Below are positions 31,580 to 35,925 of a DNA stretch of 64,000 bases, in pieces. Origin of the DNA: Spirochaetota bacterium. GTDB taxonomy: Bacteria; Spirochaetota; UBA4802; UBA5550. How positions within the stretch are numbered: position 1 is the stretch's first letter; every line of letters begins with the position of its first letter. The notes beneath the pieces are model-generated. The model was not told where the DNA came from, made no database searches, and worked only from the letters and a program-made list of their open reading frames with translations. The stretch covers positions 12,393 through 76,392 of the forward strand of contig WRGT01000072.1 of assembly GCA_009787025.1 (NCBI GenBank). The letters are read 5' to 3'. Position numbers and translations under genes: made by a program.

Positions 31580-31660
31580 AAGAATTGGAATGTCAGAAAA
31601 ATAAATTTGGGGGAAGTCCTATTTGTTATCAGGTTGAATTACGTCCCTTTTCAACTTTGC

Positions 31661-31722
31661 CTGTAGGGCATTCATATCAATAGAAAAATAGTTATCCCTC
31701 TCACGCATAGTCCGTAGGACTT
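31661..31722 (+). repeat. about 62-bp palindromic miniature repeat (copy A of the GTAGGRCATTCATATCAATAG...TAGTCCGTAGGAC family)
   Basis: ctgtagggcattcatatcaatagaaaaatagttatccctctcacgcatagtccgtaggactta; two more copies at 35509-35672. Confidence 0.75.
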
Positions 31723-31898
31723 ATACATTTGTCGCATCCTTAATAGGTTTACGGAAAAATAAAGAAAGGAGTAAACGACGAGACAAGTTACAATATATGG
31801 AAATTAGTTGACTTTTTATAGGAAGAATCAAAAAATAGATAACTCATTAAACGGTTATCAGATTATCGAAATATATTCGCCGATGGAGGTAGTCGATA

Positions 31899-32366: not shown

Positions 32367-34169
32367 TTAGTTTTTAACAATTCCATATTGTATTGCAAAA
32401 TTTAGAAAATCATTTAATAATTTATCTTCTCGTTTTTCAATATCTGCCTTAATCCAATCATCGTGCGGATACTCTTTTGCCAATTTATTAACAATTTTTA
32501 TTGGTGATTTTTTATACCATCTGTCTTTTTTTGTTTTGAAAAAACCATCACCTGCCTGAATATTAGTTTTTTTATCCAGAATTATTTTATTCCCAAGTTT
32601 TTCTAAATATTCGTCAGCCTCTTTGCGGTTCCAGTTTTTATAATTTGCTGATTTCCAATTTTTAGGCAAAATATGTTCTATCTCTATTTTTATTTTTCTG
32701 TTGTTTCCATTTCTATCAATTAAAGTTTGTTCCGGAATTTGATATGCCTCCCATAATAATACCGGTTTAATCATAAATTTTGAATGAGCGTAAATGTTAT
32801 GAAATTCCCGCTTAAAATCTTCTTTAGCAAAAATAGGATATTTAAACTGTCTTTTATTTGCAATATCAACAAATGCAGGTATTGAAGCGTTTTTTATGTA
32901 TGATACTCCCGGTCGGGTAATATATGAAACAAAACAATATGCAAGAGTTTTCTTTGTAAATTCCTCAAATCCCTTTTCTTCAAGTTTATCTTCCTTGCTT
33001 TTGTTTGCAAAAAAATATACGGTAAAATTATATTTCCAAAACGCATTTGGCATATGTTCTAAGGCGTGTACATATTTCAGAGCTTCCTCAGAAACCTCAA
33101 AATCGTTATTGGCATCCTTATCTGATAGTACTTTCCAAAAATTTGAGAGAGATATAACATCTTTCATCACTTCGTCATTCTTTAATTTCTCATACTTGTT
33201 TTGTTCAAAATACTTTCTAAGTCCGGGTACTGTTGTATCTTTAATATTATCTTTTGCGCGAAGCCAATACATATACTGGGTAAAGATTTCATCAGTTGTA
33301 TTCTGATTAGATTTATTATTTTTTGGAATGTCATCACATATTTCTGAGAATTTCTGCCATTTTTGAATAAAGCTGTCTTGTTTGTTATCATTGCTATAAT
33401 ATTTATACAATTGCGCTTTAAAAATATCAGAATCGGACAAAGGCATGCCTCTATCGTTTAGTGTTGTGAATATCCTCAAAGCAACATCTTGAGATTCACA
33501 TTCTATCGGCAATAAAATACAGTTGTTTAATATTCGTATGCATAAATTGTAAAATGGAATCGGATAATCTTTTACATATTCATCAATCCATTCTGTAAAA
33601 TGTCGATAATTTTGAGAATAAATATCTTTTCCATTTGTCGTTGTTCCTGTTTTTAATATACTTATTAATGCTTCACGGTCTTTATCTGTCGCAACCTTTG
33701 TATCAATTTTAATTTTGTCTTTGTTTGGTTCTTTGGTAAATTTGTCGGTATGCCAAATACATTGTCCGATTTGTCTTTTTACTCCTATACTTTTATCATC
33801 TTTAGATGGTTCAAGTTTCTTATAAATAGCTCTTAGCAACAAAAGAAGCGTTGTTATTCTTTGTTGTCCGTCAATAACTTCTAAAAATTCTTCGTTGTTT
33901 TTGACTTCTAAAAATTCTTCGTTGTTTTTGACTTCGTTGTTTTTGACTTCGTTGTTTTTGAACGTTACAATTGAGCCAAGAAAATACTCCTCTTTGAAGT
34001 CATTCGCATCATTTTCCGGCATAGCAAACTCTAAAATATCATCCCACAACGTTCTGCACCTTTCTTCGTCCCACTCGTATGGGCGTTGGTATTCCGGAAT
34101 CAAATATTGATTGGACTTATCGGATAAAAGACTTTCAATTGATTTCTGATCTACATGTAATTTACTCAT
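32367..34169 (-). CDS. GmrSD-family type IV (modification-dependent) restriction endonuclease, DUF262 + DUF1524
   Basis: N-terminal DUF262 DGQQR motif (VIDGQQRITT); C-terminal His-Me finger EIEHILPKNW...NKIILDKKTN. Confidence 0.75.
   Translation of the reverse strand: MSKLHVDQKSIESLLSDKSNQYLIPEYQRPYEWDEERCRTLWDDILEFAMPENDANDFKEEYFLGSIVTFKNNEVKNNEVKNNEEFLEVKNNEEFLEVIDGQQRITTLLLLLRAIYKKLEPSKDDKSIGVKRQIGQCIWHTDKFTKEPNKDKIKIDTKVATDKDREALISILKTGTTTNGKDIYSQNYRHFTEWIDEYVKDYPIPFYNLCIRILNNCILLPIECESQDVALRIFTTLNDRGMPLSDSDIFKAQLYKYYSNDNKQDSFIQKWQKFSEICDDIPKNNKSNQNTTDEIFTQYMYWLRAKDNIKDTTVPGLRKYFEQNKYEKLKNDEVMKDVISLSNFWKVLSDKDANNDFEVSEEALKYVHALEHMPNAFWKYNFTVYFFANKSKEDKLEEKGFEEFTKKTLAYCFVSYITRPGVSYIKNASIPAFVDIANKRQFKYPIFAKEDFKREFHNIYAHSKFMIKPVLLWEAYQIPEQTLIDRNGNNRKIKIEIEHILPKNWKSANYKNWNRKEADEYLEKLGNKIILDKKTNIQAGDGFFKTKKDRWYKKSPIKIVNKLAKEYPHDDWIKADIEKREDKLLNDFLNFAIQYGIVKN
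33878..33961 (-). repeat. in-frame tandem repeats inside the GmrSD gene (2 x 27 bp then 2 x 15 bp) encoding NEVKNNEVKNNEEFLEVKNNEEFLEV
   Basis: cttctaaaaattcttcgttgtttttga x2 followed by cttcgttgtttttga x2. Confidence 0.85.
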
Positions 34170-34251: not shown

Positions 34252-34527
34252 CTATTTACCGATATACTCGCCATCCCGAAAAGTTCCCTTTTGTAATATT
34301 CTGCCGTATGAATCATACAGAGTTCCTTGTCCGTGCATTTTATCATCTTTCCATTCACCTACATATTTCCCCATCAAATCATAAGTCATAGTTCCCTCGC
34401 CGTTCGCTTTACCGTCTTCAACTTGACCTGCATATTTTGAACCATCAGGGTAAGTAAGTGTTTTGCTTGAACTCGCGTAGCTTGGCAACAAACCGAACAA
34501 TACGCATAAAAGTATTATTTTTTTCAT
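34252..34527 (-). CDS. small secreted MORN-repeat protein
   Basis: signal peptide then three YxGxxxxGKxxGxG MORN-like units. Confidence 0.55.
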   Translation of the reverse strand: MKKIILLCVLFGLLPSYASSSKTLTYPDGSKYAGQVEDGKANGEGTMTYDLMGKYVGEWKDDKMHGQGTLYDSYGRILQKGTFRDGEYIGK

Positions 34528-34716
34528 TTTATTGTCTCATTCCTTTAATTTAATGTAAAAGCTCTTCCATATTTTTTTATTTCTATTTTAATCAATTGAG
34601 CAGCCTCCCCAAACAAAAAAACCGCAGAGTAAGGACAAATTTTTTGCCCCATATTCTGCGGTTTTATTTCATTAATTAAATTTTTGCTTGATTTTAATTC
34701 AGTAATTAAAAAATTA

Positions 34717-34793
34717 CTTGCTGCTTGCTGCTTGCTGCTTGCTGCTTGCTGCTTGCTGCTTGCTGCTTGCTGCTTGCTGCTTGCTGCTTGCTT
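34717..34793. repeat. heptanucleotide microsatellite (CTTGCTG)x10 plus a degenerate unit
   Basis: ten perfect 7-bp units 34717-34786 then cttg cttgcgg; lies between the MORN gene and the MNT gene. Confidence 0.95.
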
Positions 34794-35079
34794 GCGGTAT
34801 TGTTATGTCAAGTGGTATCTTCATATAAGAAGTTTTATTTTCATATCTTATTTCAGTCAAGATATTTTTGAGAGTGGGTGTGAAAAAGTGGATAAAAAAA
34901 ATAATTTATTGCCCCTAGTAAAGGCTGCAAGCCTTATAATCAGCAGCGCAGGGCAAAGCCCTATCCTATTGATTTTGTCCCTACGGGACATTAAAAAATT
35001 GATGCTGTCCTTTCAGGACATTGAAAAATGGTGTAAAATACATACTTGACAAATAATAAAAACTTAATGTAATTAAAAT

Positions 35080-35400
35080 ATGGATAATTTTGAAGAAAGA
35101 CTCAATAATATAAAAGACTCCGTCCTGAAGTTTGTACCTGCAAAGTATATATATCTGTTTGGCTCTTACGCCTATGGAAATCCAACAGAAAAAAGTGATA
35201 TAGATGTTTATATTGTAACACCGGACAATATAACTAATTTCTCTGAATTATATACAAAAATTATAGTAGATTTAAGTTATAAAAAAATATTTTTTATAGA
35301 TTTGTTATTAAGCACTGAAAGTGTTTTTAATAAAAGAAAAATAGAAAATATTCTCGAAGAAACAATATTTCAAAAAGGAAAAGTAATTTATGAAAATTAA
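35080..35400 (+). CDS. minimal nucleotidyltransferase (MNT, pol-beta superfamily; HEPN/MNT-type antitoxin-like)
   Basis: GS-x9-DxD motif FGSYAYGNPTEKSDIDVYIV; 106 aa; no intact HEPN partner (19-aa overlapping ORF 35390-35449 only). Confidence 0.65.
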   Translation: MDNFEERLNNIKDSVLKFVPAKYIYLFGSYAYGNPTEKSDIDVYIVTPDNITNFSELYTKIIVDLSYKKIFFIDLLLSTESVFNKRKIENILEETIFQKGKVIYEN

Positions 35401-35508
35401 AGATGTAATAGAATGGATACAAATCGTTGGGAGTCTCGTTCTGAAATAGGTTTACATATTAATAGTTAAATCCTGATATAGATTAACAAAACATTATTAT
35501 TTCTATAT

Positions 35509-35672
35509 TGTCCGTAGGACATTCATATCAATAGAAAAATCGTTATCCTTTCACAAATAGTCCGTAGGACTTTAACTGAATACACCAAATATTTTGTTAT
35601 TTAATGTGTTAAAGTCCTACGGACTATTTGTTTATTATTATGCTATTATCTATTGATATGAATGCCCTACGG
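35509..35672. repeat. inverted pair of the about 65-bp palindromic miniature repeat (copies B1 35509-35575 and B2 35607-35672) forming a large hairpin
   Basis: gtccgtaggacattcatatcaatag...aaatagtccgtaggactttaac and its reverse complement separated by 31 bp. Confidence 0.8.
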
Positions 35673-35925
35673 GCAAAAATTACGCAATGATACATTAATA
35701 TGTAAACTTTTTTTAGGACGAGTCACTCTTGAGCATATTGTCAGGCCAGAGAGTGATTAGGGGAACATCTACCAAACCTTTTGAAAATCCTGCATGACTC
35801 GCCAATAAAATAAAAATAACTAACAAATATCGTTTTGCCGACTGTGGTTTCATTTACTTTCTCCCAATCACATGCAAAATGAGCAATACAAAATAACGAG
35901 GTAAACAAGCGATTGCTAATCGCCT

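Follow-up and report, generated by a model that had tools for sequence, protein, structure and literature searches.

We analysed a perfect heptanucleotide repeat in a window of 64,000 nt of DNA (by the window we mean the whole of that stretch) from a metagenome-assembled genome (MAG) of an uncultured member of the Spirochaetes of the termite gut, a repeat that an earlier reading of the bare sequence, here called the original prediction, had proposed to be a phase-variation switch. The repeat lies inside a 552-nt spacer between two divergent genes, as that reading had stated, with the gene for a MORN-repeat protein on the minus strand (34252–34527) and the gene for a minimal nucleotidyltransferase (MNT) on the plus strand (35080–35400). 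The restriction gene that had been reported nearby was also recovered, as a gene for a 600-aa type IV restriction endonuclease of the GmrSD family (32367–34169, minus strand) follows the MORN gene. The GC content of 28% given for the region was too low, as the spacer measures 30% without the repeat and 33% with it. The MORN and MNT proteins have consecutive NCBI accessions (MCL1865737 and MCL1865738), which reads as NCBI annotating no gene between them, and neither of the two flanking annotated genes includes the repeat. The neighbouring genes have their relatives in metagenomes of the termite gut, and the surrounding region is rich in further duplications and palindromes. A search for tRNA and tmRNA genes found none.

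The repeat tract occupies 34717–34792 and has no strand assigned to it, reading (CTTGCTG)x10 and then CTTGCT on the plus strand, and AGCAAG(CAGCAAG)x10 on the minus strand. Its 10.9 copies have 100% matches and no indels, which bears out the earlier count of ten perfect 7-bp units, a unit length that is not a multiple of three; its end, previously placed at 34793, moves back by one base, as 34793 is the first mismatch. Stop codons are impossible within the tract in every frame of either strand. A 14-nt probe of two units, allowed up to one mismatch, matched within the tract only across the 64-kb window and had no matches in 100 dinucleotide-shuffled versions of it, giving a chance expectation of zero. 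The search for other CTTGCTG tracts that had been suggested for the genome returned no further one in the window, and there is no second array in the 64 kb comparable to the tract, so that the occurrence at several loci that is typical of classical contingency loci is not seen there. In addition, the tract does not have the classical placement of such loci, either in the 5′ coding region of a functional gene or in the spacer of a promoter, and a consensus promoter scan found no −35/−10 pair bracketing it.

The tract is not an assembly artefact: the assembler's k of 141 exceeds its length, and there is base-for-base agreement between the JGI and ENA contigs. Contigs carrying the locus were sought by exact look-up of the MORN and MNT proteins and of a 36-aa protein encoded across the tract, and only contigs with 100% identity to the window, over thousands of bases and with ten units each, were among the matches listed. 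The JGI and ENA contigs probably share one set of reads as their source and so do not count as independent evidence. At JGI the locus is split over two contigs, whose break falls not at the microsatellite but at a nearby hairpin, on which they overlap by 45 nt (34615–34659). A scan of metagenomes with the left flank and two units gave no matches in a collection that evidently does not hold this sample, and the peptides predicted for 3, 6–9, 11–13 and 15 units were absent from a collection of 15 billion proteins from which the 10-unit control peptide was absent too. A literature search with the repeat sequence returned unrelated eukaryotic primers only. Since the tract is long and perfect and its unit is not a multiple of three, it should be prone to slippage and hypermutable.

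The open reading frame (ORF) that contains the entire repeat lies on the minus strand, which is also the strand of the MORN gene. This candidate leader ORF (34714–34824) begins at an ATG at 34824, continues through 11 codons and the whole repeat and, at the present copy number, ends at a TAA at 34716–34714, encoding in its 36 codons the peptide MKIPLDITIPQ(ASSKQQA)n. It was annotated independently by the JGI gene caller; the 36-aa peptide is of low complexity and had no match in Pfam. Upstream of the ATG are promoter-like hexamers (34832–34860), namely TTGACT at 34860–34855 and, after a 17-nt spacer, TAAAAC at 34837–34832, which ends 7 nt before the ATG. The pair is a candidate promoter from which a leaderless mRNA may start. 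Leaderless initiation is plausible in this organism because a Shine-Dalgarno sequence is missing from ~45% of the ORFs in the window, several of which have a −10 box 6–9 nt before their ATG. The layout TTGACT-17-TAAAAC-7-ATG also mirrors that of leaderless MNT paralogues from the same habitat.

The three reading frames that meet the 3′ end of the repeat on this strand have very different fates. When the copy number was changed in simulation, the leader ORF stopped 3 nt 3′ of the tract with 10 or 13 units and 11 nt 3′ of it with 11 units, whereas with 9 or 12 units it gained 56 codons (34545–34713) and ran to a stop at +172, through a hairpin that occupies +54 to +97. The TAA of this extended frame (34547–34545) is 17 nt before the MORN ATG and abuts the Shine-Dalgarno sequence of the MORN gene, AGGA at 34544–34541. 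An open frame of 56 codons arose in 381 of 20,000 shuffles. Its codon score of 0.23–0.24, compared with 0.31 ± 0.11 for genes and −0.06 ± 0.19 for open stretches that are not genes, is at about the 24th percentile of real gene segments of 56 codons and exceeds nearly all of the non-gene open stretches, from which genuine small genes had been removed. JGI called the frame as a partial gene, where one of its contigs begins inside it. The 90-aa product predicted at 9 units has neither a Pfam match nor a recognisable domain and spans the hairpin, and the product of the extended frame is probably irrelevant.

The hairpin belongs to a predicted intrinsic terminator on the minus strand (34615–34661), composed of a stem-loop at 34661–34622 (CCGCAGAAUAUGGGGCAAAAAAUUUGUCCUUACUCUGCGG) and a U7 tail at 34621–34615. 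Its folding energy of −32.1 kcal/mol corresponds to z = −4.6, none of 200 shuffles folded as well, and the hairpin was kept when a 305-nt RNA was folded. The stop codon of the present leader ORF is separated from it by 52 A/U-rich nt, and an upstream A-tract makes the terminator bidirectional. It is an orphan terminator, in that there is no gene on the minus strand upstream of the hairpin. The U7 tail is followed by 70 nt, by the AGGA and by the MORN ATG at 34527, and the MORN gene is the first gene 3′ of the terminator. Its 91-aa product, described earlier as a lipoprotein, has a signal peptide, but its sole cysteine is residue 8 and no convincing lipobox was seen by eye, no predictor having been run. 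Between the terminator and the MORN gene, the only match to a promoter consensus ends 4 nt before the ATG and therefore cannot serve the gene. The 82-nt gap that separates the MORN gene from the GmrSD gene showed no terminator and no match to a promoter consensus, and the two genes may therefore be co-transcribed. The GmrSD gene itself contains perfect in-frame tandem repeats on the minus strand (33877–33961), 27 nt x2.2 and 15 nt x3, which add ~25 residues (NNEVK.../NNEEFLEVK...) and make the protein 600 aa long where all close homologues have 575–585 aa; the gap in the alignment coincides exactly with those tandem repeats.

Considering these features together, we tentatively favour a reading in which the repeat serves as the frame counter of the minus-strand leader ORF and thereby gates the terminator ahead of the MORN gene, and probably ahead of the GmrSD gene as well. 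The predicted transcript would begin close to the ATG at 34824, or at the ATG itself. Ribosomes would stop 3 or 11 nt past the repeat at 10 or 11 units, with 52 or 44 nt still to go to the hairpin; this would then form and most transcripts would end at U7, leaving the downstream genes off or low. The 10 units of the present assembly would thus represent the OFF phase. If slipped-strand mispairing removed one unit or added two, to give 9 or 12, translation from the same ATG would continue for 56 more codons, through the hairpin, to the stop 17 nt before the MORN start. A translating ribosome would block the folding of the terminator and, in addition, would deliver ribosomes to the MORN ribosome-binding site, switching expression ON. 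The gene most plausibly affected through the leader ORF and the terminator is the MORN gene, with or without the GmrSD gene. The label of a phase-variation switch that the original prediction gave is a fair one, and the notion that a change in repeat number shifts a reading frame upstream of the MORN/GmrSD pair holds up; the mechanisms then proposed are poorly supported, and the reading that we favour uses the other strand and a different mechanism.

The closest known counterpart is the pil1 locus of Streptococcus gallolyticus, in which a leader of 38 aa contains 22 GCAGA repeats and ends 39 bp ahead of a stem-loop terminator (PMC3894217). Gain or loss of repeats there lengthens the leader, ribosomes disrupt the terminator and the pilus operon is turned ON, as has been proven experimentally (Danne et al. 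2014, PMC3894217). The spirochete locus resembles pil1 (and pil3) in having a non-triplet repeat wholly within a short leader ORF, of 36 aa here compared with 38 aa there, and it resembles pil1 in that the leader stop precedes a stem-loop terminator (by 52 nt here and 39 bp there), in that other phases extend translation into or through the terminator, and in having a divergent upstream neighbour and an exported protein encoded downstream. There are also differences. Where pil1 has a 5-nt unit (GCAGA x22) in a Firmicute, the spirochete has one of 7 nt (CAGCAAG x10.9), and its leader is without a Shine-Dalgarno sequence and so would require a leaderless start. Moreover, only one of the three phases is long here, and it reaches the ribosome-binding site of the next gene; in place of pilus genes, the MORN gene and the type IV restriction gene lie downstream, and the spirochete switch is a prediction from sequence.

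Heptamer repeats are themselves a known class, as exemplified by neuO, hmw, the short tandemly repeated repetitive (STRR) sequences of cyanobacteria and the TAACTGA repeats of Beggiatoa. In neuO of Escherichia coli K1, a variable number of tandem repeats of 5′-AAGACTC-3′ allows a full-length product only at the right unit number modulo 3 (PMC13001214). The likeness lies in a heptanucleotide repeat at the 5′ end of a reading frame whose full-length product depends on phase; however, the neuO repeat is part of a bona fide enzyme gene, whereas the extended frame described here has no homologue or domain and contains a terminator. In Haemophilus influenzae hmw1A and hmw2A, 7-bp ATCTTTC repeats act through a long hairpin of the 5′ untranslated region (UTR), a G-rich partner and RNase III (PMC12721329). 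There too, a heptanucleotide repeat lies in transcribed leader DNA upstream of a gene, in that case one for a surface protein, but here the repeat is inside an ORF, and in the 305-nt fold its RNA pairs weakly with itself and no partner is seen. Tandem heptamers that are intergenic and genome-wide have been described as cyanobacterial STRR and as TAACTGA in Beggiatoaceae (PMC4679880), and an excess of heptameric repeats has been reported in bacteria (PMC4692102). The tract shares its intergenic tandem heptamers with the STRR and TAACTGA repeats, and its unit occurs in many phyla; those repeats, however, form many short arrays per genome, often near start codons, whereas the 64-kb window contains just one array, long and perfect.

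A possible parallel was found closer to the source of the window. In ~310 kb of termite-gut spirochete DNA there was one other perfect non-triplet repeat of at least five copies, (GACAACC)x8 on a termite-gut treponeme contig (L153, 3230–3561), between an MNT-HEPN gene pair and a gene for a lipoprotein with BspA-type leucine-rich repeats and a Big_2 domain. This repeat follows a short frame that contains a start codon; two of the frames stop 14 and 46 nt past the repeat, the early stops are followed by a hairpin with a U7 tail (z = −3.2), and the third frame runs on for 53 codons until a TGA overlapping the lipoprotein gene's ATG. The layout appears to parallel that of the window, as suggestive but weak evidence from sequence comparison. 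It is doubtful, if conceivable, that repeat-phased leader ORFs gating terminators are a general device in termite-gut spirochetes, and possibly in other phyla, for switching exported proteins, with GmrSD as a further target in the present case.

Several observations count against the attenuation reading and are the reason for our caution. The −10 hexamer of the leader lacks the conserved final T of the consensus and was not picked out by the consensus promoter scan, and the leader lacks a Shine-Dalgarno sequence, so that a leaderless start has to be assumed. Between the terminator and the MORN gene there may be a weak promoter rich in A and T, for example at TAAAAT (34590–34585), and a bidirectional terminator could simply insulate the two divergent units from each other. 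The statistic for the 56-codon open frame is modest (p ~0.02), and its codon score could in part reflect the A-richness of the strand. Comparative support is absent, as each contig that carries the locus is from the same strain and has 10 units. The nearest homologue of the MORN gene (54% identity) has an ordinary promoter with no leader, repeat or attenuator, and homologues of the GmrSD gene (70–80% identity) are found in other contexts, with the homology starting at the ATG. In the treponeme contig, the open frame is not significant on its own (2478 of 20,000 shuffles), and the hairpin may serve as terminator to the HEPN gene that precedes it. Lastly, there was no convincing bias in strand, leader or terminator among the 119 (CAGCAAG)n arrays listed from other phyla. 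The trends in those listed arrays were weak, with flanking-gene orientations of 39 versus 31 and 41 versus 28, a downstream terminator in 10 cases versus 4, and an ATG up to 15 nt upstream in 22 of 111 versus 14 of 114.

The alternative that survives best is that the tract is a slippage-prone but functionless intergenic microsatellite in the non-essential spacer of a variable island of defence genes and mobile elements, with frames and terminator being coincidental. We consider this possible, if not what we would expect. Its main support is the abundance of such repeats: a scan of reference genomes with four units found (CTTGCTG) arrays of 4 to 38 or more copies at no fewer than 119 places, mostly intergenic and without the clear biases considered above. 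The hosts among the matches listed, which did not include the organism of the window, belong to the Proteobacteria, Actinobacteria, Chloroflexi, Verrucomicrobia, Bacteroidetes, Spirochaetes and other phyla. CTTGCTG loci are often near arrays of other heptamers, with 6–8 different arrays in some 8-kb loci (L005, L030 and L107), and the 52 further period-7 arrays of other sequences in the loci examined indicate that heptamer arrays are a common kind of bacterial repeat. The locus is also without conserved relatives in the collections searched, and duplications and palindromes abound around the tract. However, a neutral tract should decay, and 10.9 perfect units imply recent or ongoing turnover. 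In addition, a functionless tract would leave unexplained the presence of an orphan terminator in a divergent spacer, as well as the two early stops and the one long frame reaching as far as the ribosome-binding site of the MORN gene. If our favoured model is wrong, the tract would be one more ordinary intergenic heptamer microsatellite.

Individual CAGCAAG arrays outside the window do resemble classical switches. In a Bacteroidetes MAG (L067, 83–241), an ATG and eight codons are followed by (CAGCAAG)x8 and then by a small hairpin with a T-rich run, and a frame that differs from that of the ATG by one unit is open from the array into a gene for a type IX-secreted metallopeptidase of 1044 aa; judged by its sequence, the locus resembles a translational phase switch of the classical kind, based on the CAGCAAG unit. 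In a Spirochaetia MAG (L027, 5872–6225), the nuoD-nuoH spacer is taken up by a heptamer array longer than 300 nt in the sense orientation, as (CAGCAAG)n and then (CAACAAG)n, which is interrupted by a scaffold gap and ends ~40 nt before the nuoH ATG. Short G-rich (TGGGGAT)n arrays on one strand were observed beside MNT cassettes in other termite-gut spirochete contigs (L143, 518–544; L146, 1701–1727; L196, 587–617) and are reminiscent of heptamers from Xanthomonas and Nostoc that are reported to form quadruplexes.

A second alternative keeps the features of the minus strand but separates them from the MORN gene. The DNA from the candidate promoter to 34615 could be a stand-alone unit for a ~210-nt small RNA or for the 36-aa peptide, in which copy number would alter nothing but the length of the product. 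The promoter-like hexamers, the short ORF called by JGI and the strong terminator do form a compact and gene-like arrangement, and the Rfam scan of the window gave weak, chance-level matches to small RNAs on the minus strand at 34612–34727, over the terminator. No Rfam family reached the threshold in that scan, however, and the low complexity of the peptide and its want of a Pfam match also speak against this reading. Such a unit would further require that the MORN gene have its own promoter, and none that was convincing was found. We therefore regard this explanation as unlikely.

The original prediction had drawn attention to the plus strand, on which a stop-free frame of 121 codons (34684–35049) begins before the tract. 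The frame exists and is unusually long, as the 84 stop-free codons 3′ of the tract reach a length seen in 49 of 20,000 shuffles, and at the present copy number those codons are in phase with an upstream TTG. It might encode a small secreted protein or lipoprotein subject to phase variation, with the repeat supplying a hydrophobic signal peptide (LLAACCL, in which LAAC is lipobox-like), and would at present be in frame and ON. The repeats of the Neisseria opa genes have a similar arrangement, being located in the region that codes for the signal peptide. What did not hold up was the status of the frame as a gene, which we consider very unlikely. Its codon score of −0.11 equals that of stop-free non-coding stretches (−0.10 ± 0.09) and is ~5 sd below the expectation for coding sequence (0.31 ± 0.08 for genes), whereas the MNT gene, the MORN gene and another small ORF score 0.31–0.34 on the same scale. 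No homologues of the 84 non-repeat residues were found among 1.84 billion representative proteins, and AlphaFold was confident only in the hydrophobic helix encoded by the repeat, with a pLDDT of ~50 elsewhere. The frame is absent from the gene tables of both JGI and ENA, its TTG start has no Shine-Dalgarno sequence, and room for a promoter is lacking because the bidirectional terminator ends 22 nt 5′ of the TTG. The last third of the frame is a 30-nt tandem duplication of palindromes, of a type similar to those in other spacers of the island. On the codon score, the lack of homologues, the low AlphaFold confidence and the nearby terminator, we rejected this frame as a gene.

The tandem duplication (34968–35027) lies 20–80 nt 5′ of the −35 hexamer of the MNT promoter, and each of its copies has a palindrome, TGTCCCTACGGGACA or TGTCCTTTCAGGACA. 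It is not common to MNT paralogues, and could be an operator or a relative of a GTCC...GGAC element that is present at 35435–35722.

It is highly improbable that the repeat tunes the spacing or helical phase of a promoter, either that of the MNT gene or a minus-strand promoter just 3′ of the tract, in the manner of H. influenzae hmw. A 7-bp unit does alter helical phase, a good −10 hexamer (TAAAAT, 34696–34691, minus strand) occurs 20 nt past the tract, which abuts its −35 region, and control by a repeat from within the 5′ UTR has been documented for hmw (PMC12721329). The MNT gene, however, has what appears to be its own promoter (TTGACA at 35047–35052, then TGTAAT, and the ATG at 35080), which is ~255 nt from the tract. 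Homology among MNT paralogues starts only ~45–55 nt 5′ of the ATG and covers a promoter of TTGACA, ~17 nt, TATAAT or TATAAC, 6–8 nt and ATG, and none of the sequence from 34528 to 35040 was found in 80 MNT paralogue loci. This pattern suggests that the MNT promoter is leaderless, travels with the gene and is independent of the repeat. The effect on promoter spacing that had been proposed earlier is unlikely, as the tract is outside any promoter spacer, the consensus scan having placed it between no −35/−10 pair. A transcript from a minus-strand promoter would still have to cross the terminator, and the fold offered the repeat RNA no partner for a long hmw-like hairpin.

A final alternative, that the minus-strand RNA (CAG-CAAG)x11 is an XAG-N4 platform for an oligomeric HutP/TRAP-like antiterminator controlling the downstream terminator, is barely credible, for although HutP reads XAG triplets with 4-nt spacers (period 7) beside an intrinsic terminator (PMC2425495), as the ~11 units 52 nt upstream of the terminator would allow here, no protein of this kind was found, none having been looked for, HutP sites number 3 + 3, the units here are far more numerous, and their perfect identity points to slippage and not to the selection of binding sites.

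The MNT gene (35047–35400 with its promoter) encodes a product of 106 aa and has no HEPN partner gene. The family is very abundant in the termite gut, with 888 homologues at E ≤ 1e-5, and its members carry their own promoters, which imply leaderless mRNAs (loci L124, L125 and L130–L209). On the 3′ side of the gene is a nested inverted repeat of ~290 nt (35435–35722), in the position that the HEPN partner occupies in the paralogues and with ~30 nt of HEPN sequence left. Its arms pair as 35435–35463 with 35694–35722, 35508–35538 with 35646–35676, and 35553–35576 with 35608–35631. It is formed by two inverted copies of an element of ~65 nt with GTCCGTAGGAC palindromes, of which a lone copy is located at 31655–31725, between a Bro-N gene and an ORF of 64 aa. 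The element looks like a small mobile element, or one similar to repetitive extragenic palindromic sequences, that replaced the HEPN gene. We also considered the nearby palindromes as integron attC sites and rejected them as such, as neither the gene orientations nor the anatomy of the sites fits.

To our knowledge, leader ORFs that are phased by a repeat and gate a terminator have been proven so far only for the pili of Streptococcus. If the attenuation reading of the spirochete locus is true, it would be the first candidate for a repeat switch of that type outside Streptococcus and the first with a 7-nt unit, as well as the first such switch with a type IV restriction enzyme among its possible targets, and its host is a gut symbiont that has not been cultured. 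It would also provide a signature with which metagenomes could be searched, consisting of a short ORF, a non-triplet repeat, early stops, a terminator and a gene. Further, it would suggest that defence and exported proteins in the communities of the termite gut are under stochastic on/off control.

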